From: Dudresnaya verticillata
Lineage: Eukaryota
Length of the DNA stretch: 64,000 bases
Assembly (NCBI GenBank): GCA_977862235.1
Contig: OZ374561.1
Span: 1,798,001-1,862,000, forward strand
Direction of reading: 5' to 3'
Shown: positions 17,510 to 38,724 of the stretch, in pieces
How the letters are laid out: the number at the start of each line of letters is the position of its first letter
How positions within the stretch are numbered: the stretch's first letter is position 1
Made by a program: the position numbers and the translations under genes
Notes under the pieces: model-generated
What the model was told of the DNA's origin: nothing
Database searches by the model: none
What the model saw: the letters and a program-made list of their open reading frames with translations, nothing else

Positions 17510-18487
17510 TGTTGGAATGCAGCCGCAAGAGAGCGCGCCGCAAGAGAAATTAAAATCAAACGTCGGTTTATTGCGTTAAGTAAGGGATATAGGAAGACTG
17601 TCAGCTAGCTAAAACAAACCATAGTTAGGAATAGAGAGATAGGATAGAATTGCCGGGCAAAACGAAAGCGTATATAAGCCGCCGTCGCGCGGCAACTTGG
17701 ACTAAAGAGGCAGACAAAAAACCCAACCGAAACCAGCAAGCCGCTCACGACAGCCTGTCCCCTAACCAAACCAACACACGATACGCCCATTTTGAGTGGC
17801 GTGTGTGTACTACTGTAGTAGAATGGCTTTCAAGCCAGAGTAGACGGCCACACAGCACGACAGCTGTCCTGAAAGCGTGATCCCACTCGCGTGGTTGGTA
17901 GCTCGAAAAGGGGTGGTAGAGACTTGAGAGGGCGGCAAGCCCTGCAAAAGAGGGGGAAAAGGGAAGGCGAACCGTACTGCTTAGAGCAGTCGTCGTAGGC
18001 AGCACGGCTTGTAAACGCCTAACGGGGGGTGTAGCGGTGATACCGTGAGAGTCCAACAAAAGGGGAAAAACCCAAGGCACACACCGCTGCCCTTTTAGTG
18101 CGGGGCCCCTGCTACTCAGGGGCCTAATAAATACGGCGGGAGCCGAAAAGGTACTACCCGCTCAGTTAGAGCTATAATGCTAACAATGAGCTAATACTGT
18201 ACACTAACAGTTACACTAGCGATTAAAAATAGGAATGAGCGGTCATCCCGCTTCCGTACGTACGGCGCCATTGTAAGGCGCCACGCCAAAAATAGACGTG
18301 CCATCATGGCGCGTATCCGCCACTCAGCGCGCATTGTACTCACGTAGTTAATTGTCCCATGGCGAGCAGCCATCTCCCTCCTGCATCCCACGCCTTACAG
18401 ACGTCGCGTGTACACGTGGCTCCTTACAGCGCCCCAGCGCTCGTTATACCACAACTACTCCCACCACCCACCTTGTTTTTAGTGACA
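17510..18487 (+). repeat. Copia 5' LTR, split by a solo LTR (17510-17813 + 18459-18487)
   Basis: Matches 38393-38724; TATATAA at ~17671. Confidence 0.92.
17814..18453 (-). mobile_element. Solo LTR of a Gypsy subfamily related to the 18801-32947 element, inverted
   Basis: TSD ACTAC (17809-17813, 18454-18458). Reverse complement starts TGTGGTATAA, ends CATTCTACTACA and shares blocks with the Gypsy LTR. Confidence 0.9.
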
Positions 18488-18800
18488 TTCATGAATTTAC
18501 GCCAAAACCACATCATCAACTGAGTAACCGTTACTAACCGAAACAACTCAGTAGGCGACAAAACATAGCTCTGTCTCACAGTTGAAATTGATCCTGATTG
18601 ATCATTTCACTGTGTGACATCTAATACTGCCATTTATTGGCTTGTCGTTTAAAAGAGTCAAAAGTAACTTGATTACTACAACTATCTTCAACAGATACCC
18701 GCACTACATGACGCACGTCAACTAACCAAGACATCTCAAGCTTACAGTGGCGATAGTCAAAAGAGCCGCGAATGACCCAGAAGTCATCCGTGAGCGCCAA

Positions 18801-19421
18801 TGTGGAATAATTAGCGCCCGAGCGCTGTAAGCACACACGTGTACAGACGACGCCTGTAAGGCGTGCGGCGCCCGAGGGCACGATGGTTGAGATGGCTGAT
18901 TATCATTGGTTGATTAATCCTGGTCACCCATATTTTTGGCATGGCGCGCCAGACAGCGGCGCGCCTGTACCTCGTAGTGGTACTACCACTCATTCCTATC
19001 ATTGGATTGTAATCCACCATTCAGTGTACAGTATTAGGTAACTGTCATTATTATAACTCTAACTTAGAGTGGGTAGCATTTCCGGCTTCCCGCCGTATTT
19101 AATGGGCCCCTGAGTAGCAGGGGCCCCGCACTAAACCGGTAGCGGTGTGTACTTTGGGCTGTACCCATTTTCTGGTCTTCCTACGGTGCCACCGTGTTTC
19201 CCTTGCCTTGGGCGTCTACAAGCCCTATCGTGTACGACGATTGCTCTACGCTGTAGGGTTCGCCTTCCCTTTTTCTTTGTTTCTGGGTATTACACCCACT
19301 ACAAGTCTCTACCACCCCCCTTTTCCCTTTTCCTTTGAGCTACCGCCCACCGTGAGTGTGTGTCCCCAGGACAGCTGTCGCGCCGTTTTATCGCCGACTA
19401 CCTGGCCAAGGGCCAACTACA
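18801..19421 (+). repeat. Gypsy 5' LTR (621 bp)
   Basis: TGTGG...ACTACA; duplicate at 32323-32947. Confidence 0.95.
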
Positions 19422-19422
19422 G

Positions 19423-19435
19423 TGGTCTCCCGACC
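19423..19435 (+). promoter_or_regulatory. Gypsy primer-binding site TGGTCTCCCGACC (tRNA uncertain, possibly Tyr)
   Basis: TGG-starting tract 1 nt after the LTR, complementary to a tRNA 3' end ...GGUCGGGAGACCA. Confidence 0.75.
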
Positions 19436-19853
19436 TAGAACAAGCTCTCAGGGTCGGACCCTTTTCTACCTTGCCATCGACAGGCCGAATCGAGAAGTCA
19501 AGACAGGACGGAGTGTCCGTTGATTTTCAAGGTTCCAACCTCTCGAAGGGCAAAACCCTAGTCGTCTTACTGTCGACGGTTTCTACGCTTCACGTTAAGC
19601 TCCAGAATAGCGTCAAATCTGTGAGCAAGCACAAGTTCGTTTTACGGTTTTATCCGTTTTTAGAAGTACCCTCTCACGGCGGAGTGACGCCCGGAGTGAG
19701 ACTACCTCAACAGGTTTTCCGTGCATCCTGAGAAAACACGAGTATAATACGGTTTCTACCGTCGAGGAGCCTGGGAAGAAGTCCCCGCTACCACATCGGC
19801 TGAACCGAGAAGAACGTCATCAGACCGACGATACAGGTCCTGTTGAAGTCAAG

Positions 19854-22565
19854 ATGCCTACATCTAATGGCGATACAACGCGCCCCGGCTTATCTAGCCG
19901 AGGCGCCAGTCGTACAGGCAGCCTTGCCTCTGTAAGAACGGTAGGCGCCCGCACCCGTGCGGTCGTAACCGCTCTTGCAAACAATCCGGCAACGGAGGAG
20001 CTGGGACCGCCGCCCCAAACGACCGGCGTCCCAGCTGAAGAAGAACCACCTGGCCCTGGTAGGGATCAGGTCCCTGACGGAGAAAATACGGTCCGAACCG
20101 TTGGAGAAGCCCCCGCTGACAACGGGGAGAACGAAGGTCCAGGCCGTATAATGATGCCGCCGCCCCTGGCGTTAGCCAGTGTTCAAGCTATGGGCGGACG
20201 AGCCCAGGAAGAAGAAACTCCGGCAACTCCGGACGAGGAGTTGCCAATTCGAACGAAGTATCATTCGTCTGAAATCCGCTGCTTCACGGAGCGTGAGATT
20301 GGACGAATGGTCGAATTAGGCATCGAGAGATCCTTGACGACGAGCGTCGTGGCATTGTGGGAAAGCCAAGCTGATGATACCTTTCTAAAGGTCAAGAGGT
20401 ACATTGACGAGGCATCCGCGCGCTGTGATGATCGCCTCCTGGCGAGGTGTCAACAAGAGATTGAATCTCGAGGTCGACCAGGTCCTCTCAGAGGATTAGA
20501 CGAAGAGAGGGTCGAAACCCTGCAGGCGCAAGTGGATTCCCTCGGGGACCAATTGGATACCGTCCACGAGGAACTACACGCACTCAACAAGGTTACCGAC
20601 CTAACAAGGACAGAAGCCGTAATGGCTATACAAGACGTTCAACGGAACGTCGACGACACAAGGTGTGTCGAACAAGATCGAGCCATCGAGCTTTTACGCA
20701 AAGATCTCGATGGAGAGAGACGGAAGGTCGCGTTGCTAGAAGCAAAGATGAGGCGACTTAATCGTGAAAGGGACTTAATCCCTGAAGTCAAACGACGACG
20801 CTCCCCTGTGCCTCGAGGTACCAGGGACCGTCGCAAGACGTCTCCTCGACGTGACTCGGGAGGGGAGTCTGGAAATGACGACTTTGGTCGTGAGAGGACG
20901 GAACACCCTCGGTGTGATTGCCGGGCGACGCACGGTTCCAACGTGTGCCGCAGCCGGCTTGACTCACGCCAAGACCGGTACTCAAGCCGCAAAGCTGAAG
21001 ATCAACGCCGAAGCAATTCCTACCCCGCTCCGAACCACTCGGATGAAGATGAACCCACCTCGCGAGGTCTTTCCCGACCGTCATGGAGCTCTTGGAGAGG
21101 CCCACGTCGGACGGGACTCAAGGAGTTGACTCCACGAAACCCTTCCTTTGTACAGGTTCTTTCGTATCGACGCTATCGGTTGTTGAATGTCGATTCATAT
21201 CGAGGACCGGAAGTAACGGAAGCCACTTCCAAGAATATCAAACGGGTTAAATCCGTAATGAGAAGTCGCCGCTTTGATGGGCGTGACCCAGTTTCCATAA
21301 TTGGCTTTCTGGCCACGTTGAAACGACAGTTGGATCAAGCCCAAGTCAGTGAAGGCGCTGCCATTCTGGTTATCCCAGAGTTCTTGGAAAAAGACGCTAA
21401 GGACATGTTCGAAGCCAATTTCGATGCCGCAGGTGACGACAATGGGGGTTTCAATGAGTGGCCGGAAGCCATTAATTACCTCCTGCGTACTTACGCAAAG
21501 GACGTCTACATCGAGAAGATTTCTTCTGAGATGGACACGATGATTCAGGAGTCTGATGAGGAGGAGGTTACGTTTTCGAGACGTTTGCAGAACAAAGCGC
21601 GAAAGGTCGCAGGTGTTTACTCAGAGCAAGACCTGATCACACGTTTTATACGAGGGCTACTACCTGCGGTCAAACCGCTTTTGAGTACGTCATCACTGGA
21701 CCCTCGCACGGCGCGACTGGCAGACTACGTTGAGCTCGCAACGGCTCAGGGAGATTCCCACCGAGCCCTTGTGGGTGGTGGACGCTCCAAGAAGGTGAGC
21801 TCAACGCTACCCCGGAAAACCCTCTCCAGGGTGAAGACGCACAAGTCTGGACGAGCTCTTCTCATTTGCCAGAATAAGAAGCAGGTGTCCTCGGATTCCG
21901 ATTCATCAAAGAGCAGTAGCTCTGACGCGGATAGCGAGGACGCTGTGGTGGCTGCCATCGACCACGAGGCGCCTCCATCCACGGTAACCCAATCAGACTT
22001 ATGGTCTGGGGCACCCAGTGACCAACCATACTATGGTGAAGTGGAAGCGGTTCTACAGAACTACAACCACCGATTGCCTGGATGGGCACAACCAACAAGG
22101 ACTCAGCGTCCTGGGTGGGTAACAGTCGAAGATGCACCCAATGACATTTGTTTCGAGTGCTATGGCGTGGGCCACAAGAAACCGAATTGCCCATATCTGG
22201 CTCGCACGGATGAACCGTCATTTGAGGCGCTAAAACGCCGACAGTTTTATCACTTGTCGCGCGAGCAGAAGACATGGTTAGCCACCATAAGGCGCCTACC
22301 CGAGTTCGCAAACAGAGATATCCGTGGGGACCACCGCGACTACGCATCGTCAGGTCGGGCCGGTGGGCCGCCGCCAGGCACGCATCAAAATTTGGGGTCA
22401 ACCCCAGGCAGGAACGGACATGTCCAATTTCAAGCGGGGCTTAATCACCCGGTTGACACTCCCAGACACCCACCGGCGGCGCCACGCTCGCCAAGACCAG
22501 GGTCGCGAACCCTTCCGCCGCCTCCACCGCTTCCGCGGTCGCCTGCTAGCAGGGCGAAAAACTAG
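19854..22565 (+). CDS. gag: Gypsy Gag, 903 aa, with long N-terminal extension
   Basis: Capsid-like region (FDGRDPVSIIGFL...FIRGLLP) and CCHC knuckle CFECYGVGHKKPNC. Confidence 0.9.
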   Translation: MPTSNGDTTRPGLSSRGASRTGSLASVRTVGARTRAVVTALANNPATEELGPPPQTTGVPAEEEPPGPGRDQVPDGENTVRTVGEAPADNGENEGPGRIMMPPPLALASVQAMGGRAQEEETPATPDEELPIRTKYHSSEIRCFTEREIGRMVELGIERSLTTSVVALWESQADDTFLKVKRYIDEASARCDDRLLARCQQEIESRGRPGPLRGLDEERVETLQAQVDSLGDQLDTVHEELHALNKVTDLTRTEAVMAIQDVQRNVDDTRCVEQDRAIELLRKDLDGERRKVALLEAKMRRLNRERDLIPEVKRRRSPVPRGTRDRRKTSPRRDSGGESGNDDFGRERTEHPRCDCRATHGSNVCRSRLDSRQDRYSSRKAEDQRRSNSYPAPNHSDEDEPTSRGLSRPSWSSWRGPRRTGLKELTPRNPSFVQVLSYRRYRLLNVDSYRGPEVTEATSKNIKRVKSVMRSRRFDGRDPVSIIGFLATLKRQLDQAQVSEGAAILVIPEFLEKDAKDMFEANFDAAGDDNGGFNEWPEAINYLLRTYAKDVYIEKISSEMDTMIQESDEEEVTFSRRLQNKARKVAGVYSEQDLITRFIRGLLPAVKPLLSTSSLDPRTARLADYVELATAQGDSHRALVGGGRSKKVSSTLPRKTLSRVKTHKSGRALLICQNKKQVSSDSDSSKSSSSDADSEDAVVAAIDHEAPPSTVTQSDLWSGAPSDQPYYGEVEAVLQNYNHRLPGWAQPTRTQRPGWVTVEDAPNDICFECYGVGHKKPNCPYLARTDEPSFEALKRRQFYHLSREQKTWLATIRRLPEFANRDIRGDHRDYASSGRAGGPPPGTHQNLGSTPGRNGHVQFQAGLNHPVDTPRHPPAAPRSPRPGSRTLPPPPPLPRSPASRAKN

Positions 22566-25500
22566 CTAGGGGGGAACCGGTTTCGGTTCACTGGGGAACC
22601 CCAGTCGTATCGGAACCCCCCGATCCTTCAGAGAAATGTGACTTCTTAAGCTCCTCCTCTACCAACCGATCGGTGTCGCGGGAAACCCCGCCTTCTCTTC
22701 CAAAGAAGATTTTAGAACGCCCTGTGGGCCTACCTCCCGGGTATTGTGGTGCAAGACCGTGGGGTAAGCCCCGTTTTATATCGCTACACCCGCCCGCGCG
22801 GTGAGCGGACGACGGTACACGCGGATCACCCGCGACTATAACATACGCCGATTACCGGCAGCTTGGATGGGCCCGTGCGCGGATGCCGCGCGTGCGAGAT
22901 CCGGCCAATGGTTGACGCGCCCTTGGCACGGTGCGTGCGCGCCCATACAGCACGCGCCAACAGCACACAAGGGCGACACGTCTCCACGTGTACACGCGCA
23001 ACACGCGCACCGAATATATCCGAGGGGATCCTCGCTCGGGTGCGCTCCAGCAATGCGCACCCTTAGATTACACTGATTTACAGTGCGGTAGTAGTATTTC
23101 TACGCTAGGTATTTCTGCGCGATATTTTAGTGAGCTCGCGGTGCGCGCGCATGCCAAGTGTCAAGCGCACGGCGCCACACACGCGCGCGCATCTCCTGCG
23201 GGGGATACTTAGTATACGGGGTGAACCCCCCTCACAGTAAAGCGCCAAGCAGGCCTAGGAACTCGAGGATACCCCCACCTTCGCACCTGGTGACGACACC
23301 GTGCGCGACTTGGGCTTACGTACCCCGTTCTACCGCCTGGCTTCAACAGCACTCAGCGGCGTAATCGCCTTCATCGTTCTACGTGCACTACGGCACTCCA
23401 ACGTGGGCCGGGGATTTACAGTCGGCCCCGCCCACGTTTCAACCACCCGGGGCACACCCCGTGTCCCTAGCTCTACCACCCAACCGGCGCCGACTTCACC
23501 GTCGTCGCCTGCTACCAACCCGTGGGAGGACCACTTCGAACTCTGGTTCTGGGGTTGCGCCCTTGTTCGGGCGTTGCACCACAGGTATAAGTATCATGAG
23601 TATGTTAAGGACCCAGTTTTCTCTCTTTCGAGATACAACTATAAAGTTGTCGCGTCCGTGGGGACTTCTGTTGAGAAACTTACTCAAGTGCTCTCAGTCT
23701 TGGACACTGGGGCGGGCCCAAACCTCATCCGAGCCGACGTGCTCTCTTTGGAAGAACGGAAGAAGATATCTTCGACCGGATCGATCGTGAATTTGACATC
23801 CGCGTCAAGTCACCGCTTAACAACTATGGGAATGATCTCCCTGGCCGTCAGAATTGGCTCCTACACGGTTCGACAACCGTTCGTCGTAGTCAAGGCATTA
23901 GCCGTTGATATGATCTTGGGCTGTACCTTTATCGATACCCATGTCGAGGCGTTGCGTGTACGCAAACAAACCATCGCGCTACGGGACGGCTCGGTACAAC
24001 CGATTCTACGGCGTCGGTGCGGTATCCCGAGAGCCACGAGCTCTGGCGAGCCCATGGAGGTCCCTCCCCTACCTAACTCGCGACTCGTGAGAGTTGCCCA
24101 AACAACTAACTTACTACCAGGTTCAGAAACCTGGGTCGCCGTCACGTGCACGGCCAAAGGAACGCACTTCCTAGATTCGTCCCAACGTCTATACGACCGT
24201 CAACAAGTGATCATCACGAATGGCATCGTCAAACTCCAAGAGAATGTTCTCTTCCGGGTCAAGGTTGCCAACTTTTCTTCCCGCACACAGCGGTTGAACA
24301 AACACCAAGTGATTGGTCGCGCAGTTCCAGCTCCCACGGCCACGCCTGCATATTCGGTTTCCATCGACGACGTCTCCGAGGATACAGTCTCACAACAAAA
24401 GGACACGAATCCTCAAACGGAGACATCCTTCGATGTAGGGGGGGCAGGGCTGGCTGCTGCTCTTGGCGCGACCAATTCCAAACCGGGCGTTACAACCGCC
24501 GCTGAGAAGCTAACAGTCGATGACTTAGCCCTGGAACACCTCTCTACGTCTGAAAGACGTCTCGTGCGCAAGATGTTGCGACCCTTCGCAGATATGTGGA
24601 ACGGGAAGCTCGGGACCATAAAGGTCACGGAGCATCGAATCGATCTCACTGACGGGGCAAAACCCGTATTTGCACAACCATATCGGTCTGGACCGAAGGC
24701 GCGACAAGCGGAGCAAGATGAAGTCGACAAGATGTTGAAGGAAGGGGTCATAGAGCCAGCGCGCTCTGAGTTCGCAAGTCCAATGGTACTGGTGAAGAAG
24801 CCAGACGGATCCCTCCGTTTCTGCGTTGATTACAGAAAGCTTAACGCGATAACCATCAAGGATTCTTACCCTCTCCCGCGAATGGACGAGTGCTTAGACT
24901 CGTTGGGTGACGCCCAATATTTTACAACCCTTGATTGCAATTCAGGGTACTGGCAGATACCAGTCGCGGCGGAGGATAAGCCAAAGACCGCTTTTACCTG
25001 TCATGCAGGTTGCTTTCAGTTCTGCAGAATGCCATTCGGTCTGTGCAACGCACCAGCAACGTTTCAACGAACAGTTGACATTTTACTATCGGGATTCCGA
25101 TGGAAGTCTTGTCTCGTCTACTTGGACGACATCATAGTCTTCTCTAAGAGTGTCACCGAACACTTAGGTCACGTTCAAGAGATCCTCTCTGTGTTGAAGG
25201 AAGCGGGTGTGTCGCTCAAGTTGAAGAAGTGTAATTTCTTCACAAAAAGCGTGGACTACCTCGGACACGTGATCCGACCTGGTCTCCTGGAGGTAGCTAC
25301 CAAGAATACACAAGCAATCGAAGGCTTCAAGAAACCTACGACGCAAACGCAACTACGGTCGTTCATTGGGCTATGCAACGTCTATAGACGTTTCGTACCG
25401 AAATTTGCACGCGTAGCGTCTCCGCTTAATAGGCTACTACAGAAGGACGTTGGTTTCGAATTACCTCCATTCGATGAACGGCAACGCGAAGCTTTCGCTT

Positions 25501-28007
25501 TACTGAAGAAAGCCCTCATCGCGCCGCCAATACTCCGACTTCCTAAGGAAGACACACCCCTCTCGGTCGATACCGACGCGTGTGACTACCAAATAGGGTG
25601 CGCCCTAATGCAAATGGAACCCGACGGGACTCGACACCCTATTGGCTTTTGGAGTCGGGGCCTAACACCAGCAGAACGGAATTACTCCGTCGGCGAGAAG
25701 GAATGCCTCGCTGTAGTCTGGGCTACCCAAATGCTCAGACCATATTTGGAAAGGTCTCATTTCGACCTCTACACCGACCATCAGGCTGTCAAATGGATGA
25801 TGAGCATGACGGACGCGTCCGGACGTCTAGCGCGATGGCGCTTACGTCTCTTAGAGTATGACTTCACGGTTCAATACCGTAAGGGAAAGAAAAATCAGAT
25901 TGCTGACGCTGTCTCACGTTTACCTACCTATGGTTTTACTAAGTGGGAACCGGATCTCGAGATCCCCTGCTTCATAATCGCTGATAGCGATGGGGAAGAT
26001 CCCCCTGACCCTTTGGCGAAGGAAACATCGCGAGCCAACACCAGGTCGCGACCTTTGGAAGAATGGGAGATGGAACCCGAAGACAATTCGTTCGAGTCGG
26101 GTCTCGAGGACGAGCAACTGATAGCCAACGTGGCTGAGAAGGAAATGGACGAGAAGAGTCTTTCACTCGTCACAATAGAGGAACTTCTTCGCACCCAACG
26201 AACAGACGAATTCTGTAAGGGTATCCGATTAGCCATCGAAGCGGGAAAACCGGGATGTTACCTGGAAGACGAACGCGGACTCCTAGTCCGAAGGTCTTAC
26301 ATTGACCGAGCTTTACAGGTAGTCATACCTAGAGTTCTTCAGGAGAGAGTCCTACATCTTGCACACTACCCGGATATGGCTGGCCATCCTGGTGGCACAC
26401 AGATGTACCACAACTTGAGAAGGCAAGTGTATTGGCCAGACATGGCCCTTGCCGTTTACTCGACAGTGCGTAACTGTGTCAAGTGCGCGATGGAACGAGT
26501 CCAGTTGAGGAAACATACTTCGCACATGAAGTTATTTCCGGCTACTATGCCGCTCGAATTCCTAGGAATCGATATCTTGGGCCCGCTTCCGCGATCAAGC
26601 CAGGGGAACGAGTATCTTCTCGTCATCACCGATCGTTTCTCGAAACTTACACGGGTAGTCCCGTTGAAGACGGTAACGGCTTATACGGTAGCGAGGGCGT
26701 TCTGCGAACACTTGGTGTATATCTACGGGCCACCCCGTTACGTCTTGTCCGACAATGGATCGCAGTTTGCTTCGAAGTTCTTTATTGCCGTCTGCGGCAT
26801 CCTCCGTATTCGGAATATGTTCACCTCTACATATCATCCGCAGACCAATGGTCAGACCGAAAGGTTCAACCGCACCCTTCTAGCAGGGTTGAGACACTTC
26901 ATCGCAGATGATCAAAAAGATTGGGACGAGTTCACGTCGGCACTAACGTATGCGTATAATACGACCGTTCATCGTGCTACGGGATTCGCGCCCGTTGATT
27001 TGGTTCTATCCAACCCACCTACTTCCATCCTCATGGAGAAAGCTGAAACGGTCGACGTAGCTAACGTATCTGCGACTAATGTCAAGAAGCGGCTGACCGC
27101 TAGACTTGAGAAGCTGATGGATACAGCGTTGCCTCGGCTAAAATTAGCGCAACGTCGCTACGAAGCTAACTTCAACAACCGCATGCGTCTGAGCAATCAG
27201 AAGATACGCCCTGGACAATGGGTCTTTCTCGAAAGAGAAACTAAGATGAAAGACGCTGGAGGCGTAGCGCGAGAAGGAAAGCTGTTCCCAAAGGCTCTGG
27301 GGCCTTATAAGGTCCTCGAGAGAGGAACGCACACCGTCGTGCTTGAAGTCAAGGGGGAGCGAGAGTCAATCTCGTTGGACCGCGTGACATTGGCGCCCTC
27401 GCCAGACGAAGAACTCGGAGCTCTAGGACAGGACTCCGCGATAGTTGGTGAAGCACCAGAAGCTGGAAACCACCTGCAACCACCTTCTGGGCCAGAGCCC
27501 ACCGATGAACCTTCCACTGAAGAGGCGCGAAGAGCGCAAGATGAGGAACGCTCAAGAGAGGCTGTGGGACCCGCAAATGCGACGACTGTCCCCTCTCCAT
27601 TAATTGGAAACACTGACAATATCGATAGCACCGTGGGCCCGGTTTCTCCTAACATACCCCCTACAGAGGTATCTGTTTCCCTGTCTCAAGGCGGTAACAC
27701 CCCACAACTCTTACAGGAGTCAAATCCGCCTGCCGCTCCGACGGCAATGCCGGCGATTGAGGATGATGTGACGGCGCCTCGCCGTAAGTTTTCACGCTAT
27801 AAGAAAGCACCCCCACGTGAGTTCGTGTATGACAAAATCGTCAACTATGACGCCGATACCCAAAAGTACCGTATCAGGTGGTTCCAATGCCCAGCGTCGC
27901 AGGACACCTGGGAACCAAGGGATCACCTCCCTGACAATTTAGTCAAACGGTATCACCGTTCCAGGAAGATCCCCCTTCCAGGAGTAACTGCCGACGCAGT
28001 GGCTTAG
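22556..28007 (+). CDS. pol: Gypsy Pol (PR-RT-RNaseH-IN-chromodomain) in the -1 frame, leader interrupted by the solo LTR at 22745-23583
   Basis: LDTGA protease, YLDD RT, TDAC RNase H, HHCC and DDE integrase, GPY, chromodomain KYRIRW...DTWEP. Confidence 0.95.
22745..23583. mobile_element. Solo LTR (839 bp) of a third family inserted in the Gypsy pol leader
   Basis: 10-bp terminal inverted repeat TGTGGTGCAA/TTGCACCACA; TSD GGTAT (22740-22744, 23584-23588); removal restores the pol frame. Confidence 0.9.
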
Positions 28008-28200
28008 TCGATAGACGAAGACGTGGAGTCTCGGGAAAACACAGCCCTAGAGCTCTACAGAAAGAGACTGTCGGCTTAACATGGAAAAGGAGGAGTCAAT
28101 CTCCTGCAGCGAGGGTTGGGTTGCTTGTGGAAGCCGTCATTATATGAAACGTGGAACACGTATGCTGGTGAAGAAAAGGTTGATACCTTGGTTTGGTTAG

Positions 28201-28325
28201 AAGATATGGATAGATGAATGGAGATTCAAGATATGGATAGAAGACATGGATAGATGTGGATAGATGTACAGAAGGTTCAAGACCTGGAATAGATGAGATC
28301 AAGGGAAACCTGGACATGGGTAGAA
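28201..28325 (+). repeat. Degenerate short-unit array (AAGAYATGGATAGA-like) after Gypsy pol
   Basis: About 4-6 imperfect copies of (A/G)TGGATAGA. Confidence 0.6.
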
Positions 28326-29282
28326 CCCTGTAATAATAAGACTGGAGCCAACGCTCACATGTATAGAAAGAAATACTACCACCGGTAGGAAGGAAGCTTT
28401 ATGCCAATATGGTAATTAAGCTATGGGGATAGGCTCCAGCCACTTATGGATTGAAATCCAGGAGTGAGGATCTGCCCTCATGTTGGACACCTCCACCACG
28501 GCAATAATCGTGACGGGAATCCACGAAAATACACTCGTCTGCCCTAGCAGAGTTACCATAACTTTGTCGCCATTACGAGGCCGTCGCGGGTGAGGCTTAC
28601 TACCATGGAGGAGTCGCCTCACCATAACGGTGACCTGACGGCCGCAGATGTGGCATAAGCCCCCTTGTCGACGACGACTAGGGGATGTTAACGACCTTCT
28701 TCGAGGGAAAGGACGGTGTGTTGCTCCAGACGCCATAGAGGCGAATTGACCCGCAAATCAGCTATGGCTGAAGAGTCCCTACATCGGTTGGCGCCAACAA
28801 GAACGTAGCTCTACAGTATGTTTTTGTCTACTGTAGAGTCGCCTCTATCATTGCTGGCAATAACTGATTTGGCGAAGCGCCAAGGGAGGCGGATTGACTA
28901 ACGAATCATTATCCTTTGGCACCACAATCCACGGGGCACTGCCCCGGCACCCCCGGCTCTCGCCACCAACTTCCTTGAGGAGTCTACCGCGCATGTGCAC
29001 GCGACTCCCTCTCCGAGTGAAGGACCTAGAAAAGAAAAGGGCGCGACGGCCTTGAGTTAAAGGAAGTCACTCGACGAACGTCGACGGGGGCTCCTTCGGA
29101 GCCTAGTCGCAGAGGCTTGTTAATGAGGGCCCCCTCAGTGGTTGGCTCTACTTATGGAAATCGGCGTACCGAAGTGACACAAACAACAACAAGTCACTTT
29201 ACTTCAGCGGATAAGCCGCTCTTGCCCAAGTGTGGCGAATTACGTGGCTCACGAGCCATTACTCGAAGAAGGACAACTTCGG

Positions 29283-31559
29283 CTAATCCGATAACAGGTC
29301 AATAACCTCATCCTCACCCAACGGAGGATTCGGCTTAGGTGCCGAGTGAGATACGACGACACGTCGCACCTCGCGCACGACGTGACGACTCTCCCCTCCG
29401 CGACGCAGACCACGACCACGCCGACTCCCCTCTAACTCATTTAACGCACGGCGACTGGCCGTTGGCTGGTCCACTTCCATGGCATCAACGCCATCGGTCT
29501 GGCTACCCTGTACGGGAGGGGCTACTTTGTCCTCTTCCTTCACGACGAGCTCAGTCTTCACGACGACGTCGTCTTGAGGGGTTACGTTGGACTCTCCAAC
29601 AGTGGGCGAAGGCCCAGTCTCGACATCCGCAGGCTTCTCGCTCTCTTGGCCGGTGCCACTTGGTTTAACCACCAGGGAGTCGCCCTTAGTACGACTAGCA
29701 TCGGGCTGGCCCCGAGAATCATCTCGGGGAGAGATCGTGTTGAGAAACTCGCCAGTAGCGACGAAGCCAGACATGTGCGTCGTAGGAGCAGCCGGCGCCA
29801 TCGTCGATGATGAGGCGCCCGCTGTATTCATCGGCTTGGGAGCCGAGTGGGAAATGGCAGCTCCATGACTCGCCGAAGGCGCCACAGCTGACTCTTCGCG
29901 AGGAACCACCGAGGTGTCACCACCTGTCATTGCGCGCGGATCCAAACCATCGACCTTGGCCGATTCCCTCTTCACTCGCGGCGTAGCAGAATGGCCAACG
30001 CCCAAACGCGGTTTGATGTCAACATCAGCGGGGTATCCCTTCAAGGGTGGGAGCCTTGACAAATGGGTACGAAGTTTCTCCAAACGCTCCACAGGACCTG
30101 GAGTCCTCATCCAATTGGACTCATAGTCCACCATCACCTCCTCGACCCAGTCGACGAGGCTGTTAACGGTGAGATTCCGTAGTTCCCAATGCACCGCGAG
30201 GCGGATAGCCAAACCCCGTTTGTTGAAGACGTCACGCAAGACGTGGTTGGCCTTACCATGGCCAGTTGATGCCGTCGCGTACGGACCTTGAGACTGACCA
30301 TCGACAGTGTCGTCGAATGACGGGACGTCACCTGGAGTCTCCGGACCGGGGTCCTGCCAACTGGCGCTCACCCACCCGTGAGTCACACCGGTAATGCGGT
30401 TTCCCTCATCCAAGACCAGGGGTCTCTCCTCTGTCGGCTCAGGCTGAATCAAGAAGTCCGGCAACACCGGATGCCAATCTTCTGGGTCAAAGTCCACCCA
30501 ATCTCCTCGGTCATATACAGGAGTGAGATGACAGGTGTTCTCCCGGAGATGAAGATTCCGTTTGGAGATTCGGCTCCACCGAATGCGGTCTATGAAGACC
30601 AAAAGGGCCTTCAAGTCCTGTGCGTCCTCGGCGTCCGCCGACAGATTGTCGATACCCATCTCCTTGATGGCAGCGCGAAGGGGCTGGTTGATGAAATACA
30701 GCATCCAATGACGGGCCTCATAGACGAGAGTCTGCGCGACCAAGACGATCCACTCGTGACGAAAAAGGGTCCAGAGTACGCTCTCATCCATGGCTCGCGC
30801 CATCATGTTCAGGCCAAAGTAAGCCACGATGGTGGGGGTACCCACTGGCATCGAATATGAGACCTCATACGACGCGTGGTCGTCGGGCACTTGAGGGTAC
30901 TTAGCCCTGTAATACTCTGGTTTGATAGCAACCACCTCTTGGCAATGACAAGGGATGAGGCATCCAGTCTTGTGGCGTTGACGTCGCTCAAAGCGAGAAT
31001 AAGCCAACGGCTTGGCCGTCTGCGGGTTGTCAAGCGCATACTTGAGGTTGGTGGACTCGTCCCACCGGACGATGCGAGCTAGCGTATATGGATAGTTATC
31101 CCGCCCCTTGCGAATAAGGGGGCTGGCATGGCTAACCATGCGCAGGTCCCACTTTCCACTCGAGTGGATTTCCCGCATCGCCCCCAGCTGGTAGTTCAGC
31201 TTCCCGGCGATACAGTTCGTGAAGAACACCTCATGCCTGAATCGCACGTATGCGAGGTCCCAAAGGTAACAGGACGCCTCATCCAGCAGACCGGGAACGA
31301 GTCGGTTGGTCCCGGTCAACATGTCCACTCGAGCACGGCTGACGCTGTTCCACATACGACTCTGAGCACCACGACTCCCGCGTCGTTGGATGTCCTCACG
31401 ACCAGCCCCAGCTCGGGCTTTGATGTGCGCCAAGTCGGTGCGTACCAACCAGTCGCGACTGCGCTTAATGACAATCGGCGCACCCGCCGAGTCGACTTCA
31501 TGGCCAAGAACGCTGGCGCTAGAGCCAGCCTCTCCATAGACGAGACCCAAGTTGGTCAT
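29283..31559 (-). CDS. Antisense accessory ORF of the Gypsy element, 758 aa, unknown function
   Basis: Uninterrupted 2277-nt ORF between pol and the 3' LTR; aromatic-rich N-half, low-complexity C-half. Confidence 0.8.
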   Translation of the reverse strand: MTNLGLVYGEAGSSASVLGHEVDSAGAPIVIKRSRDWLVRTDLAHIKARAGAGREDIQRRGSRGAQSRMWNSVSRARVDMLTGTNRLVPGLLDEASCYLWDLAYVRFRHEVFFTNCIAGKLNYQLGAMREIHSSGKWDLRMVSHASPLIRKGRDNYPYTLARIVRWDESTNLKYALDNPQTAKPLAYSRFERRQRHKTGCLIPCHCQEVVAIKPEYYRAKYPQVPDDHASYEVSYSMPVGTPTIVAYFGLNMMARAMDESVLWTLFRHEWIVLVAQTLVYEARHWMLYFINQPLRAAIKEMGIDNLSADAEDAQDLKALLVFIDRIRWSRISKRNLHLRENTCHLTPVYDRGDWVDFDPEDWHPVLPDFLIQPEPTEERPLVLDEGNRITGVTHGWVSASWQDPGPETPGDVPSFDDTVDGQSQGPYATASTGHGKANHVLRDVFNKRGLAIRLAVHWELRNLTVNSLVDWVEEVMVDYESNWMRTPGPVERLEKLRTHLSRLPPLKGYPADVDIKPRLGVGHSATPRVKRESAKVDGLDPRAMTGGDTSVVPREESAVAPSASHGAAISHSAPKPMNTAGASSSTMAPAAPTTHMSGFVATGEFLNTISPRDDSRGQPDASRTKGDSLVVKPSGTGQESEKPADVETGPSPTVGESNVTPQDDVVVKTELVVKEEDKVAPPVQGSQTDGVDAMEVDQPTASRRALNELEGSRRGRGLRRGGESRHVVREVRRVVVSHSAPKPNPPLGEDEVIDLLSD

Positions 31560-31637
31560 CGCTGTGACGATGCGAACCCCACGTCGCGAGACGTCTCGAG
31601 TTGAAGGCTTTGCAAAATGGGAGCGACCCCAGTTATT

Positions 31638-31797
31638 CTTCTAAGACACGGAGGCCTTGTCTTCGGTATGACCGTCGGCTCCAAAGCCGATCCTAAGAAA
31701 GGCGAGCGCGACCTGAAAATACTTCTAAGGCGCGGAGGCCTTCCTGGAAATGCGTCGGCTCCAAAGCCGATCCTAGGAAAGGCGAGCGCGACCTGAA
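31638..31797. repeat. Two ~80-bp tandem repeats just upstream of the antisense ORF
   Basis: CTTCTAAG..CGGAGGCCTT...CGTCGGCTCCAAAGCCGATCCTA.GAAAGGCGAGCGCGACCTGAA at 31638 and 31722. Confidence 0.85.
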
Positions 31798-32310
31798 TCG
31801 CTCGAGCGATGCTTATGGGCGACACGACGCCAGTCGTCGACGCAAACGTTTTGGCTACGAGACAAAGGAGAAACGCTCCCGCGCGCTGCGCAGCACGGCA
31901 GAAAGACGCGCCCGAACACGACGCGCGTCGTCGCGAAGAGACTAGGGTGAAGAAGGGCGGAAGAGTGATGAAGGAGGAGGGCAGACTCGCAGGAGTGTTG
32001 AGGTTGAGTGTCGAGTCGGGGGATGACCGAGAGTGCGAAATGGGCACAGTCGGCTCCGCGCCGAGTTTGAAATAGACGCCCCGTCTGGCGGGTCGCGTTG
32101 TCGATACCAGTCGTGGCGCCAAAAGCGAGCCACCGACGACGGCTGTCGCCGGGCTGATCTGGCGCAGGCGCCGACGACCGTTCGTGGAGGCTTCTAGAAA
32201 GCCAGAAATACCGCGCTTGGCTGGGCCAATCCTTTCAACGAGATTGCATATCTCAACGGTCGGAACAGTTGGAAACAGCATTGCTGTACTGAGCGGGGTC
32301 GCTCAGTTTT

Positions 32311-32322
32311 AAGAAGGGGCCG
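32311..32322 (+). promoter_or_regulatory. Gypsy polypurine tract
   Basis: AAGAAGGGGCCG directly before the 3' LTR. Confidence 0.7.
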
Positions 32323-32947
32323 TGTGGAATAATGAGCGCCCGAGCGCTGTAAGCACACACGTGTACAGACGACGCCTGTAAGGCGTGCGGCGCCCGAGGG
32401 CACGATGGTTGAGATGGCTGATTATCATTGGTTGATTAATCCTGGTCACCCATATTTTTGGCATGGCGCGCCAGACAGCGGCGCGCCTGTACCTCGTAGT
32501 GGTACTACCACTCATTCCTATCATTGGATTGTAATCCACCATTCAGTGTACAGTATTAGGTAACTGTCATTATTATAACTCTAACTTAGAGTGGGTAGCA
32601 TTTCCGGCTTCCCGCCGTATTTAATGGGCCCCTGAGTAGCAGGGGCCCCGCACTAAACCGGTAGCGGTGTGTACTTTGGGCTGTACCCATTTTCTGGTCT
32701 TCCTACGGTGCCACCGTGTTTCCCTTGCCTTGGGCGTCTACAAGCCCTATCGTGTACGACGATTGCTCTACGCTGTAGGGTTCGCCTTCCCTTTTTCTTT
32801 GTTTCTGGGTATTACACCCACTACAAGTCTCTACCACCCCCCTTTTCCCTTTTCCTTTGAGCTACCGCCCACCGTGAGTGTGTGTCCCCAGGACAGCTGT
32901 CGCGCCGTTTTATCGCCGACTACCTGGCCAAGGGCCATTCTACTACA
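32323..32947 (+). repeat. Gypsy 3' LTR (625 bp)
   Basis: By eye it differs from the 5' LTR by one substitution near the start and a 4-nt indel near the end. Confidence 0.95.
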
Positions 32948-32952
32948 GCCAA

Positions 32953-33523: not shown

Positions 33524-35105
33524 ATGGTTAACGTTACGCTTGCATCTGTACGAAACATGCTTAATACGTACAAGCCGAGCTCACACGAGCAACTGGACTT
33601 GAAAGCCGCATTAGCAGTACATATCAATGCAGACCCTCAACAATCTAATGAGGAAATAATTACTTCTCTACGTGAAGATTTCCCAATAGAAACTCTATAC
33701 ACGAGAGCAACTATCAAAGGGCCGGCTACATTGTTCCGTGTTTTCAGAGACTATCTTACGCTCAAGGGTCTACGCTATCAACAGCACCCTCAAAATAACA
33801 GGATTGCATATGGACTGCCCGCAATGTTCTACGAAAATGAGGATGAACAAAATAGAGCCATTGCTCTTCTGGTATCGGCTAGCTCTCAAACAGCCAGCAC
33901 TCCACGCTGGGAACTGCCGAGACAACTTCACAAGGCAGCCACACCATAGCCCCCATGATGGACGTCAAGCGACTAGCTCACAATATTGCGACCAGATTCC
34001 GAAACAGTGACAAATTTACTGGGAAATTAGGAGAAGACTTATCAGAGCATATCAATAACTATCTCGATGCTGCTAGAGACTATGGGCTAGACAACGCACA
34101 AAAACTACAGTTCTTTCACAATATTTTTTTGATGGGGAAGCCAAGCGCTTCTATAGAGATAAGGTAGTCGGTGTTTGCGACGTTTTTGGAAGTGCCGTTG
34201 GCACCATGCAGCGGGAATTTAACAATGCCACGAGGCAAAATCGTGTTCGAAAACACCTACAAAGCCTCCGACTAAATTCCATCGTGAAATCGCAAAAGTG
34301 CACGATTACCGAAGCTCTGGAAGAACTTCGAGAAACAATTACAAAATTTACGCCCCAGGGCCCTATTACGCACCGTTCAGAGGAGGACAAAGTCGAATAC
34401 CTCTACAAAGCCGTTGTTGGTGCTACTTGGGCTAAAACCCCACTCTCCAGTGCACAGTCCGCTAGCCCTCCTTGGGACTTCCAACAATTATATACCGCCC
34501 TCGATGCAGCTTGGTTGCAGGAGCAAGAAGAAGAGGAAGGTTGGAAAAAGGACGGCAACTCTCCAAAATATTCACCACCAGCAGATGGAAATATTCCAGG
34601 CCTTTATTATCAAGGACAAGGCACTTACGGCAAAGCACGCCGACCGGGTTCAAGGTCGTCTGTTCCGAGAAACTATCAACCATCACGACCTCCTCGTGGT
34701 ACAGACAATAGTACAGGACAGAACGGCACGGATAAGTTTGGTCAACCCCGTAAATGCCATAATTGTGGCAGTAAAGACCATTTTATAAGGCAGTGCAAGG
34801 AACCTAAAAACCTCCTCCGCAATATCGGTCGAATGATCAAACACAATCCCCAAAATTCTGGTCGAGTCTTATATGAATTATGCCTTCAAGTAGAAGATGC
34901 ACTTTTTAGTAGTGACGAAGAAGCCTTCAATGAGTTTTTTGCTGATACACCCAGTGCAAACGAAGATTCATCAGCATCAGAGCCGGAAAGTGCGAACCAA
35001 GATGAAAGCATTACAAACTTCCATACAAGAGTAGCAAACACAACAAAAAATTACCCTCCCGCTTCAATGGGCTTAACAAGCCTACTTGATCCCGAGGATT
35101 TTTAG
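33524..35105 (+). pseudogene. gag: Copia gag, broken by two frameshifts (~33900-33950 and ~34125)
   Basis: KFTGKLGEDL... capsid-like region and knuckle CHNCGSKDHFIRQC. Confidence 0.8.
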
Positions 35106-38100
35106 ATGGAGACGGCTATGTTCACCGACGAAATATGCGACCTCAGGAAATAAGTCCATTTTTCGAGACCGTCCTCCGAAAAAAGAGGTGCCGAATGAAG
35201 AAACCCACTACGAGATCCACTGCCGCCACATTATGGAGAAAAAGAAGAAAAGCAACAAAACCTCCTTCAAAAACGAACCAATTCAAGGTCCTAGAAACCA
35301 CCATCCAAGATATCTATTTGAGTCAAACCTCAAAACAGGATACATGGAACGGCGGTTGCGTTGACACAGACGCACAGCGCACTGTTATCGGATTTCGTCA
35401 AGCCAAGGCTTATTGTAGATATATGGGTATTAAGTTTAAACCCAAGAAAAATAGCAATCGCTACAGGTTTGGTGAGGGCGAACAAAAATCAATTGGGTCA
35501 ATCCCAATCAGAATACCCCTCACGGACAAATACTTCGCGATGATAGACGTAGACATAGTGCCTGCAAATGTACCTTTTCTCATCGGAATAGATATTATGG
35601 ACTCCATCGGCATCTACGTGGACACGGTAGAGAACAAAATACGCTGTCCAAAAGGAAAATGGAGCATCCCTGTCGTTAGGAAACTCGGACATGTATACTT
35701 GGAATGGACTAATACTGATCACATTCTATTTACTAAGTCAGAACTCATCCGATTACACAGGGGATTCCAACACCCCGCGGCAGACAAACTATATAACCTC
35801 CTGAAACGTGCAAGACCCAATGAGATGAATCAGGGCACTAAGGATATCCTCACGGATATTGCAAAATCATGTGATACTTGCCAACGACTCGGACCAAAAC
35901 CCCTTAGCTTTAAGGTCAAAATGCCACACTCAGATGATTTAGTGTTTGGCGCAGAGCTTTCATTGGACCTCATGTTCCTAGACTCAAAAGCAGTACTCCA
36001 TGTTGTGGATACGGCTACCCGTTTTTCCGCCGCAACTTTTCTAGATGCACATTCAATGGAATACGGACAAAGCTTGGAAGGAATCTGGCTTGCATTTATT
36101 GAGATATGGTGTACCATATATACTGGATACCCCAACAAAATGAAAGCCGACTCAGGTTCCGTTTTTACCTCCCCTAGATGGAAGGAACTGACTAAAACAG
36201 CCGGTATCGAACTGCAAATATCAGGAGTACAAGCTCACCATTCACTCGGTATTGGTGAACGAATGCATGCCCCACTCAGACGAATCTACGAAAAGGTACG
36301 ACTCAACCATCCCAATCATCCACCAGTTACCACTCTTAAGCTTGCCGTTAAAGCTATGAATGATACCATTGGCGAAAATGGACTGGTACCCTCCCTTCTC
36401 GCGTTTGGAATACTACCTCGTTTCCCCATTGTTAATTCCGAAATGCTTTCGCAACAAGAGCGTTTGAACGTCTTAACAGAAGCTCGAAGAGAAATGAACA
36501 CCATTATTGCCGAACGCAGAGTACTAGCTGCACTTCAACGCAGAATCCCATTGGCTGCGGACCGCATCTACCTACCTGGTCATATCACGAGAAGACAGGA
36601 AACGTCACAAATGGTTTGGCCCGTACTCGGTCATTGATTTTGATTTTGATGGCAAGATGGTCACTATCAAAAATAGTCATACGCAATTAGAGGAGAAATA
36701 CAGCAGTTCTCAAGTCAAGCCATACTATCGGGAAGCCCCTCCTCAAAACAATGATATACAACCCGAAGAATTCTTCCAAGACCTTTTTAGCATATTCCGC
36801 TCCAGTTCTCGGCCCACTCCCCCACCATTTACTGTCCAAATAAACGAGGTAATCAAACCAGAAGACAAACGTTCTAGCGATCATCGCTTCGAGATTGAAA
36901 AGAAAAAGGAAATACAAGGTCTCATTAATCGGGGAACTTGGAAACTCGTCATGAGTAAGGATGTAGACCCAGGAGCAAATATATTAGGCGGAAGGTTCGT
37001 TTTGGCTATCAAAGATGAAGGGACAGACCAGGAAGTCTGGAAGGCCCGATTTGTTGTCCAAGGACACCGAGATCGAATGAAAAGATACTTAGTACATGAT
37101 ACTGCTACTACTAGACAACATTCCACCAGAATGTTAATTGGCCTAGCCGCCATATTTGGCTTCCGACTATTCTCAACGGACGTCACGCAAGCTTATCTAC
37201 AAAGTGCAGAGAAACTAATGCGTGATGTATATATCAAACCCTCAGACGAATTCGAACTCGGAGAAGGCACACTATTGAAATTACTGAAACCCCTCTACAG
37301 ACTTGCCGACAGTGGCGACTACTGGGGCAAAACACTGCACGATCACCTGCAAAAGGAACTAGGAATGGAACCCACCACTCTAGATGGCGCATTTTTCTTC
37401 AAACTGCTAAATAAGAAGTTATCCGGAATGTGCATCACCTATGTTGATGACTTTCTCCAAGCCGGGGATAATAATTTCAAGCGTCACGCCCGAAAAACGG
37501 AAGAGCGCTTCCAGTGCCGAAAAAGGGTTTACGAAAATTTTCAGTTCCTGGGTATGGAGGTTGAAACAATAGGGTCAGAGTTTCGCATAAACCAACGGAA
37601 ATACATGTCCAAGCTAACATTGCTTCATCAACACGTAAGCTTCAAGGATTATCGTTCTTTACGCGCAAAATTAAGCTGGGTCACGTATACGAGACCAGAT
37701 ATAGCATTTGCGGTAGCTCAGAGCGCACAAGTTACAGAGGTTTGATTTGACAAGGACTCAAGTCTCCACATCAAGAGTCTAAATGCAGTTATACGCCACT
37801 TACGAAAACACCCGGATTTATCACTCAGATATCCCAAGCTGGATACGATTTCACTACGTGTACAGGTCTACTCAGATGCATCTTATGGCAACAATTACGA
37901 CGAAACATCACAACTTGGATATATCATCTTCTTGACCGACCGCTCTAAAACATGCCAACCAATTTACTGGTCTTCCCACAAATCTAAAAGAGTAAACCGA
38001 TCAGTTCTAGGGAGTGAAACAATGGCACTTGCAGACGCATTTGATATGGCTTTCGCAATCAGAAACGATCTACAAAACATGATGAAACAGTATATTCCAA

Positions 38101-38462
38101 TCGTCATGTTAATCAATAGTCTCTCTCTATTTGATGTCATCACGAAAGCTACTTTAACAGCCGAAAAGCGCCTCATGATAGACCTAAAGGTCGTGAAAAG
38201 CGCTTATAAGAGTAATGAACTCGCTCAAGTTGGCTTCATCAGATCACAGTTCAATCCTGCAGATGGACTAACCAAGAAAGGCGAGTGTGAGATTCTACTC
38301 CGAATACTCAACACCGCGATCTTAGACCATCCGACCAAACAATGGATTGAAAGGTCTGATCATGGTTTGTTTAGCAAAAAGGTTTCTGGGAGTGTTGGAA
38401 TGCAGCCGCAAGAGAGCGCGCCGCAAGAGAAATTAAAATCAAACGTCGGTTTATTGCGTTAA
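35096..38462 (+). pseudogene. pol: Copia pol (PR-IN-RT-RH), defective
   Basis: Protease site DTDA (DTGA expected), LHRGFQHP..CDTC, KARFVVQG, YVDD, DASY..ADGLTK. Frameshift near 36580 and in-frame TGA at 37743. Confidence 0.9.
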
Positions 38463-38724
38463 GTAAGGGATATAGGAAGACTGTCAGCTAGCTAAAACAA
38501 ACCATAGTTAGGAATAGAGAGATAGGATAGAATTGCCTGGCAAAACGAAAGCGTATATAAGCCGCCGTCGCGCGGCAACTTGGACTAAAGAGGCAGACAA
38601 AAAACCCAACCGAAACCAGCAAGCCGCTCACGACAGCCTGTCCCCTAACCAAACCAACACACGATACGCCCATTTTGAGTGGCGTGTGTGTACTACTCAC
38701 ACCACCCCCTTGTTTTTAGCGACA
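38393..38724 (+). repeat. Copia 3' LTR (332 bp)
   Basis: TGTTGG...GCGACA followed by TSD ATCCG. Confidence 0.95.

Follow-up and report, generated by a model that had tools for sequence, protein, structure and literature searches.

Does the long open reading frame (ORF) that runs opposite to gag-pol in a chromovirus of Dudresnaya verticillata encode a protein of this element, and what could such a protein do for it? The frame, called ORF758 here, was studied in a stretch of 64,000 nucleotides of contig OZ374561.1 (positions 1,798,001 to 1,862,000, forward strand). The whole stretch is called the window and coordinates are counted from its first letter. ORF758 lies in the 4.3 kb separating pol from the 3' long terminal repeat (LTR). 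An original prediction, made from the letters alone, had proposed a nuclear accessory protein that engages the host machinery of SUMO (small ubiquitin-like modifier) or of chromatin. The reading favoured here is that ORF758 is an intact antisense gene of an unnamed, widespread family in a young chromovirus, and that its product is likely to be a nuclear accessory protein with a SUMO-binding, SUMOylated tail. Taken as a whole, this reading is judged about evenly poised between right and wrong.

An antisense gene between pol and the 3' LTR

Listed below are the parts of ORF758 and of its upstream region (aa, amino acids; SIM, SUMO-interacting motif; pLDDT, predicted local distance difference test; pTM, predicted template modelling score).

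29283..31559, minus strand: ORF758, antisense and putatively accessory gene, 758 aa and a stop codon, ATG start (from the ORF list)
30360..31502, minus strand: folded N-terminal domain, aa 20-400 (columns conserved in 45 sequences; pLDDT 87.9, pTM 0.89)
30060..30260, minus strand: small conserved helical module, aa 434-500 (helices 434-447, 450-458 and 465-483 in the model; aligns with relatives)
29286..30059, minus strand: low-complexity tail, likely disordered, aa 501-758 (composition)
29964..29975, minus strand: psi-K-x-E site VKRE, aa 529-532 (sequence)
29532..29561, minus strand: psi-K-x-E sites VKTE, aa 667-670, and VKEE, aa 673-676 (sequence)
29400..29423, minus strand: basic patch RRGRGLRR, aa 713-720 (sequence)
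29295..29306, minus strand: C-terminal core VIDL, SIM-like, aa 752-755, between GEDE and LSD (sequence)
31635..31797, no strand: tandem duplication of about 80 bp, two copies (45-nt copies 98% identical at a spacing of 80; 24-nt copies at a spacing of 84)

The stop-free antisense ORF of 758 aa between pol and the 3' LTR was confirmed, with its ATG start and with every motif named in the original prediction at its checked coordinates. Read in any of the five remaining frames, the same DNA contains 12-38 stops per 758 codons. A stop-free frame of 758 codons would arise by chance with a probability of about e^-12 in the most favourable case, and of e^-23 or less if the frame is a typical one. Codon usage was scored against the host genes of the window and gave +0.11 bits per codon for the ORF758 frame and -0.06 to -0.41 for the other five. 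Because the other frames contain this many stops and a positive codon score was obtained in the ORF758 frame only, the frame is not due to chance. With its stop-free frame, its coding-like codon usage and the 125 relatives described below, ORF758 is a genuine antisense gene within the element, as had been claimed.

The two ends of the protein differ in composition. The first 500 residues contain 16 Trp and 19 Tyr (7.0%), and the tail contains no Trp and one Tyr (0.4%); the Trp/Tyr-rich character of the N-terminal part was thus rightly noted (35 such residues vs one). A fourth psi-K-x-E site, IKPE at aa 212, sits within the folded domain. No transmembrane helix is indicated in ORF758 (highest 19-residue Kyte-Doolittle mean, 1.22), and the frame is antisense. 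It does not resemble env in either respect, in agreement with what had been proposed.

ORF758 was considered complete, because the N-termini of its relatives align with its first Met. The 763 bp between its ATG and the 3' LTR are, by inference, a candidate promoter region of the antisense gene. Just upstream of ORF758, an ORF of 241 aa (31556-32281, minus strand) overlaps the ORF758 start in the sequence ATGA and contains the duplication of about 80 bp. It was considered as a first exon or a second gene and was rejected: the codon score of this ORF is below zero, Pfam gave no match for it and the N-termini of the relatives align at the ORF758 start. It is probably a noncoding leader or part of the promoter region.

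The chromovirus carrying ORF758

The element was delimited by self-BLAST of the window and by reading of the LTR ends (TSD, target-site duplication).

18796..18800, no strand: TSD GCCAA, 5' side (identical GCCAA at 32948-32952)
18801..19421, plus strand: 5' LTR, 621 bp, TG...CA, ending ...ACTACA (self-BLAST and reading of ends)
19423..19440, plus strand: putative primer-binding site TGGTCTCCCGACC... (begins with TGG, one base past the LTR)
19854..22565, plus strand: gag ORF, 903 aa (Retrotrans_gag at aa 508-603, 19.3 bits, below cutoff; CCHC knuckle in the translation)
23259..28007, plus strand: pol, frame open 23259 onwards, with its first ATG at 23826 and its stop at 28007 (protease DTG in VLDTGAG, reverse transcriptase, RNase H, integrase, chromodomain)
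28194..28267, no strand: short tandem repeats with units of 10-13 bp, just past the pol stop
32311..32322, plus strand: polypurine tract AAGAAGGGGCCG (sequence)
32323..32947, plus strand: 3' LTR, 625 bp (self-BLAST, reading of the end and a related LTR)
32948..32952, no strand: TSD GCCAA, 3' side (sequence)

The element is 14.1 kb long and, with the LTR ends extended, has a perfect 5-bp TSD. In pol, Pfam matches were obtained to RVT_1 (7.7e-39), RT_RNaseH (3.9e-36), Integrase_H2C2 (2e-13), rve (1.4e-10) and Chromo (1.4e-06; 28.5 bits for a cutoff of 25.1; aa 1341-1378 of 1393). The order protease, reverse transcriptase, RNase H, integrase is of the Gypsy type and a C-terminal chromodomain follows the integrase; the element is a chromovirus.

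In the self-BLAST, the two LTRs align over 615 bp (18801-19415 vs 32323-32937) at 99.84% identity, with one mismatch. The 3' LTR extends ten bases beyond this match (...TTCTACTACA), and a 4-bp TTCT is deleted there in the 5' copy. This boundary was confirmed by a diverged, inverted LTR of a related family (17815-18453, 72-79% identity), because it ends at the same point. Since the LTRs are nearly identical, integration was recent, and the intactness of ORF758 in this copy is therefore uninformative on selection. No terminal inverted repeats, LTRs, duplications or other long repeats bracket ORF758 within 27900-32400, so ORF758 was already in the element when it integrated.

A gap of 693 bp (22566-23258) separates the gag stop from the opening of the pol frame. 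Gag and pol are in the same frame, eight in-frame stops separate them and no other frame is open throughout. An intron, a spacer with pol expressed separately, or a defect of this copy could account for it. The gag product of 903 aa is unusually long, with an N-terminal extension of about 450 residues, low-complexity or coiled-coil-like, ahead of the capsid-like region.

The protein family of ORF758

Relatives were searched with phmmer, exhaustively, against 1.84 billion cluster representatives. At E ≤ 1e-3, 125 were found, 48 of them at E ≤ 1e-10 (best 2.6e-34, 41% identity). The gene is thus conserved well beyond this copy, which was one of the open points of the original prediction. Every match covers query aa ~175-430, a core of about 250 residues. 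The 44 longest relatives were aligned with ORF758, and these 45 sequences have a common architecture: N-terminal motifs, the core, the small helical module and a long low-complexity tail. The N-terminal motifs are a short 'S-x-D-W-x-x-R' followed by 'D-x-x-Y/F-x-R-x-x-x-E'. The core contains ER..RH, YEVPY, TPP..TY, W.....EW, AR.G.L.W.P, LL..I..I.W..V...NR and TPVY..GDWV.FD. Over the 45 sequences, R195 is invariant, and E191, R192, P225, E232, P242, Y247, W263, E269, L287, W328 and G352 are at least 90% conserved. The idea that the 'HC' of IPCHCQE binds zinc was rejected, as the HC is not conserved in the alignment and ORF758 has no conserved Cys cluster.

The family has no name in the collections that were searched. 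ORF758 matched no Pfam family at E ≤ 0.1. The 125 representatives and three cluster members were then scanned against Pfam: 25 of 26 proteins in one batch had no match and the other had a spurious one below threshold, and the second batch gave no match (0/102). None of the 27 family clusters looked up was named; their sources were ENA, Logan, JGI and, for one, NCBI. Against the PDB by sequence, the best E was 1.9 with the single protein and 3 with the profile. In the ESM Atlas, the best scores (0.82 for aa 1-520 and 0.75 for P0053) were both under the level of a lead. Word-index protein searches returned nothing useful or one protein already found, the low-complexity tail having probably dominated the words. 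Keyword searches of the literature gave no description of this protein family, although keywords cannot find an unnamed family by its sequence.

Nucleotide collections were also scanned. In metagenome contigs, the alignment scan gave 232 pattern matches, none confirmed as a family member. The back-translated motif pattern gave four loci there, without a member at E ≤ 1e-4 except for a marginal match of 76 residues in L004. The scans of viral contigs gave no family member. The genome contigs gave one actinobacterial locus, with a marginal match of 74 residues that was taken as chance.

A FastTree tree of 76 rows has branches of about one change per site. ORF758 is loosely grouped in it with P0001 and P0004 (support 94, flagged for long branches). 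The P0020 and P0022 clusters each have nine members at 90% identity or more, on separate contigs of up to 21.7 kb. Of the 16 variable positions in the P0022 cluster, 14 are beyond aa 400 (counted by hand), and no such skew was seen in the P0033 and P0018 clusters. The P0022 pattern points to constraint, possibly purifying selection, on the folded domain.

One relative, P0059 (234 aa, ENA, two contigs), carries a piece of integrase core. Its aa 183-227 are 51% identical to aa 943-985 of the pol in the window (E 6e-6), and these 45 residues are fused in frame behind the family core; in the element of the window, the corresponding sequences are on opposite strands. P0059 is a rearranged element or else a chimera produced by assembly. 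It is the only evidence from beyond the window that would tie the family to Gypsy elements.

Predicted fold of the N-terminal part

The N-terminal part was modelled with AlphaFold and the models were compared with solved and predicted structures (rmsd, root-mean-square deviation).

AlphaFold model of aa 1-500, 126-row alignment: pLDDT 79.8, pTM 0.77
AlphaFold model of aa 20-400 alone: pLDDT 87.9, pTM 0.89
Foldseek against PDB, aa 1-500: best E 7.6
Foldseek against PDB, aa 20-400: best E 3.5, TM at most 0.16
Foldseek against BFVD, aa 1-500: best E 2.4
VIA-align against 48,161 PDB representatives, aa 20-400: none at Z ≥ 5, best Z 3.6 (8frl_G, 76 aligned, rmsd 4.0)
VIA-align against 48,161 PDB representatives, aa 1-500: best Z 4.7 (Ddi2 HDD, model aa 434-491, 56 aligned, rmsd 4.0)

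In the model of aa 20-400, this part forms a single, mostly helical globular domain. According to the guidance of VIA-align, a model usually attains Z 7-8 even if it has no clear match; since the best Z was 3.6, aa 20-400 appear unusually far from solved structures. Such a lack of match is no proof of a new fold. The Ddi2 HDD match is confined to the small helical module and is not strong enough for further conclusions. The original prediction had regarded the first ~490 aa as a domain that could not be assigned, and had suggested AlphaFold and Foldseek as a check. The check gave a confident model and no solved relative, and with no match in Pfam, in the PDB by sequence or by structure, the domain is real and still unassignable.

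Short motifs in the tail

The tail of ORF758 (aa 501-758) consists of 46% P, S, T, G and A, without Trp. It is likely to be disordered, as judged from composition; the structure models stop at aa 500. The C-terminal sequence GEDEVIDLLSD fits the sequence pattern of a SIM of the PIAS type, with a VIDL core and an acidic flank in a segment that, by its composition, is probably disordered. The SIM core of PIAS1 is VIDLT and ranks with the tightest binders of SUMO, and SUMO2/3 is bound by (I/V)DLT peptides, according to passages of PMC4907222 and PMC3901395.

Recurrence of the core was measured with the pattern [VI][VI]D[VIL], defined from ORF758 alone. It was counted in 56 homologue tails of at least 120 residues, with the first 60 residues skipped and the query excluded. 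The pattern was found in 6 of the 56 tails, vs 1.05 +/- 1.03 in shuffled tails, and none of 2000 shuffles reached six. The carriers (P0005, P0007, P0018, P0020, P0024 and P0116) are spread over at least four subclades of the tree. An exact VIDLT is found in the P0007 tail (...ITVIDLTGDDG), TIDLT in P0010 and VVDLT in P0018. The P0010 tail reads ETIDLTGDSTDDE and the P0051 tail reads DDVVVISDDDTKPEVKPE. Acidic runs and psi-K-x-E sites often stand beside the motif, as in P0005 (VKEEAAVIDVD) and P0051 (VVVISDDDTKPEVKPE). The claim of a C-terminal SIM was thus upheld in that a VIDL-type motif recurs in distant tails beyond the number expected, and has to be narrowed in that only a minority of the family retains it.

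Psi-K-x-E sites were counted 11 times in 57 tails (including ORF758), vs 4.5 +/- 2.1 in shuffled tails, with 5 of 500 shuffles reaching 11. With the three sites of the query included in the count, this enrichment is weak. Basic patches resembling nuclear localization signals (K[KR]x[KR] or [KR]4) are present in 20 of the 57 long members. The second and the third tail pattern of the shuffle test that began with [VI][VI]D[VIL] were picked post hoc.

Another C-terminal pattern was seen in four of the 56 tails (P0010, P0042, P0049 and P0070), vs 0.08 expected: a Tyr between acidic residues at the extreme C-terminus (ENYEEE, DDYEEE, ESYMEED). It was chosen post hoc and is absent from ORF758.

In our reading, the family tails carry short docking motifs, and in some of the members a putative SIM is one of these.

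Comparison with known antisense genes and SUMO-interacting motifs

Additional antisense ORFs between pol and the 3' LTR, known as aORF-3R, are described in passages of PMC7264820 for maize Grande (GENE23), rice RIRE2 and Silene Retand (ORF4), and the product of Grande GENE23 is given there as nuclear. ORF758 has the same position, past the pol stop (28007) and ahead of the polypurine tract (32311-32322) of an element with TSDs on both sides, and the same strand, opposite to gag-pol. As in the aORF-3R examples of that source, the region contains tandem repeats, the protein lacks a clear match in the databases and a role in the nucleus is proposed. The aORF-3R carriers are plant Gypsy elements of the Tat/Retand type without a chromodomain, whereas ORF758 belongs to a different protein family and lies in an element with a chromodomain integrase, in an intron-poor eukaryote.

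In Retand elements, the TRP28 domain (PF04195, Transposase_28) is reported in 97% of clusters in the part of PMC11963269 that treats them. TRP28 is likewise encoded by an antisense gene behind pol and defines a lineage of elements in that account. In contrast, no PF04195 match was found in ORF758 (E ≤ 0.1) or in the 128 family proteins scanned. Fungal Gypsy elements offer a precedent for the arrangement: in Botrytis cinerea, those of the Boty-like kind carry brtn, an extra antisense gene behind pol (Zhao et al. 2011, Virology 417:248, listed among the references of PMC7264820). In view of this entry, the original prediction went somewhat far in calling antisense ORFs no standard feature of chromoviruses; if Boty is a chromovirus, the arrangement would have a precedent among chromoviruses as well. 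ORF758 itself encodes 758 aa, is unspliced and is without a conserved Cys cluster.

The V-I-D-L core of ORF758 resembles the PIAS1 SIM and stands, as there, in a low-complexity, acidic and likely disordered context. It differs in that the core reads VIDLL, the acidic residues are mostly before the core and the C-terminus is three residues away; it is a predicted SIM. The HBZ protein of human T-cell leukaemia virus type 1 (HTLV-1) is a bZIP protein. Like ORF758, it is encoded antisense near the 3' LTR, and it is presented as nuclear and regulatory in the part of PMC11963269 concerned. No relation of sequence or fold between HBZ and ORF758 was found. The VANC proteins are anti-silencing proteins of VANDAL DNA transposons. 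The comparison with VANC, made in the original prediction, would be one of idea alone, namely that of a transposon-encoded factor acting on host silencing, and VANC belongs to another class of elements.

What is new here is the protein, which has no PF04195 or other Pfam domain and no solved fold that could be found, and belongs to a large environmental family.

Weighing of the explanations

Several observations weigh against a SUMO-binding accessory protein of the element. Among the 56 homologue tails, 50 are without [VI][VI]D[VIL]. For a broad SIM pattern, no enrichment was found (34 vs 28.7 +/- 5.1; by tails with the motif, 141 of 500 shuffles were at or above the observed number). Three of the 11 psi-K-x-E sites are those of ORF758 itself, and the shuffle test ignores kinship among the tails. 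The closest relatives, P0001 and P0004, are short and without a comparable tail. The G+C content at third codon positions (GC3) of ORF758 is 0.634, which, like its codon score, is nearer to host genes (0.63-0.68) than to gag and pol (0.54-0.55). The retrotransposon setting is known for this one copy only, as the scans of contig collections gave no family member. The exact ORF758, gag and pol proteins are absent from a collection of 15 billion proteins. Moreover, with 693 bp and in-frame stops between gag and pol, this copy of the element may be non-autonomous.

ORF758 could be an accessory protein that works without SUMO, as a regulator of transcription or RNA handling or as a repressor of copy number, VIDL and psi-K-x-E being incidental. 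This fits a family that conserves its folded domain rather than its tail, with a SIM-like motif in just 6-7 of 56 tails, no enrichment of the generic pattern and a different recurrent motif (the acidic-Tyr-acidic C-terminus) in four. Regulatory nuclear roles have also been proposed for antisense ORFs such as Grande GENE23 and Retand TRP28 (in the relevant passages of PMC7264820 and PMC11963269). However, the query-defined motif is about six times enriched at a count that no shuffle reached, it recurs in separate subclades and it often stands beside acidic runs and psi-K-x-E sites (P0005, P0051). A role without SUMO is held to be unlikely, though by no means negligible. A transduced host gene would be another explanation, the 125 relatives then being ordinary genes of poorly annotated eukaryotes. 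The host-like GC3 and codon score fit a captured host gene as well, no second copy of ORF758 was found within the 64-kb window and transduction by LTR retrotransposons is documented (a passage of PMC7264820). This is countered by the position and orientation of ORF758, typical of aORF-3R genes, by the joining of the family core to a Gypsy integrase piece in P0059 and by the clusters of near-identical variants on separate contigs (P0020, P0022). Furthermore, none of the 27 clusters was named and one came from NCBI, which would be unusual for a widespread cellular gene, and the family has branches of about one change per site. Transduction is regarded as distinctly improbable. The window is heavily nested, with a Gypsy element inside a Copia element and a solo LTR beside it, and an unrelated gene or mobile element could have been inserted into the retrotransposon after integration. 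Yet no terminal repeats, LTRs or duplications bracket ORF758 within 27900-32400, and LTRs differing by one base and one 4-bp indel leave little time for a later insertion, which is therefore considered very improbable indeed.

Proposed role of ORF758

SUMO takes part in the silencing of transposons and proviruses. Under the favoured reading of a nuclear accessory protein with a SUMO-binding tail, antisense transcription would begin at an internal promoter in the 763 bp adjoining the 3' LTR, where the tandem duplication of about 80 bp is located. The protein would be imported into the nucleus, where its folded N-terminal domain would bind a partner. The tail could dock on SUMO or on SUMOylated chromatin proteins through the PIAS-type VIDL, and could itself be SUMOylated at the nearby psi-K-x-E sites. 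The element might benefit in one of two ways, between which no choice is made. The protein could steer or tether integration complexes to SUMO-rich heterochromatin, alongside the chromodomain of the integrase, or it could blunt SUMO-dependent silencing. The anti-silencing role is speculation.

Genomic surroundings of the element

The chromovirus is nested in a Copia-type element, whose LTRs (17509-17814 and 38392-38697) are 99.7% identical and whose ORFs at 34206-37745 contain zf-CCHC and RVT_2. Right behind the Copia 5' LTR, two insertions were found: the inverted, solo-like Gypsy LTR at 17815-18453 and, 347 bp further, the chromovirus. This suggests that the Gypsy lineage of the chromovirus was inserted repeatedly at the same spot of the Copia element. 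Between the zinc-knuckle and reverse transcriptase ORFs of the Copia element, in the place expected for the integrase, an ORF of 500 aa (35135-36637) has no Pfam match at E ≤ 0.001. No Rfam family was found in 17000-39000. The neighbouring genes of the window (tubulin, M16 peptidase, MutY-like and UBR4-like) are unspliced long ORFs, and the window was therefore assigned to an intron-poor eukaryote.

Significance

To our knowledge, no function has been established for any of the antisense extra genes of LTR retrotransposons, although such genes were recognised decades ago. ORF758 is a case of the known aORF-3R arrangement with a new protein family. It provides handles that the plant cases lack. 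The family is large and deeply diverged (125 clusters at 50% identity), which gives a good alignment and a confident model. The predicted fold has no match among solved structures in the searches. Finally, the tail motif gives a concrete biochemical prediction, the binding of SUMO.

At the least, a protein family lacking from Pfam has been found that is worth recognising in the annotation of transposons. If the family is generally borne by retrotransposons, it would be a new class of accessory proteins of Metaviridae-like elements in little-studied eukaryotes, and it would tie transposons directly to the SUMO pathway by which hosts silence them. A bolder possibility, put forward tentatively and thought unlikely to hold in full, is that ORF758 founds a widespread family of retrotransposon nuclear proteins with a fold of its own, whose PIAS-like SIMs and SUMO acceptor sites would direct integration to SUMO-marked heterochromatin or disarm SUMO-dependent silencing.

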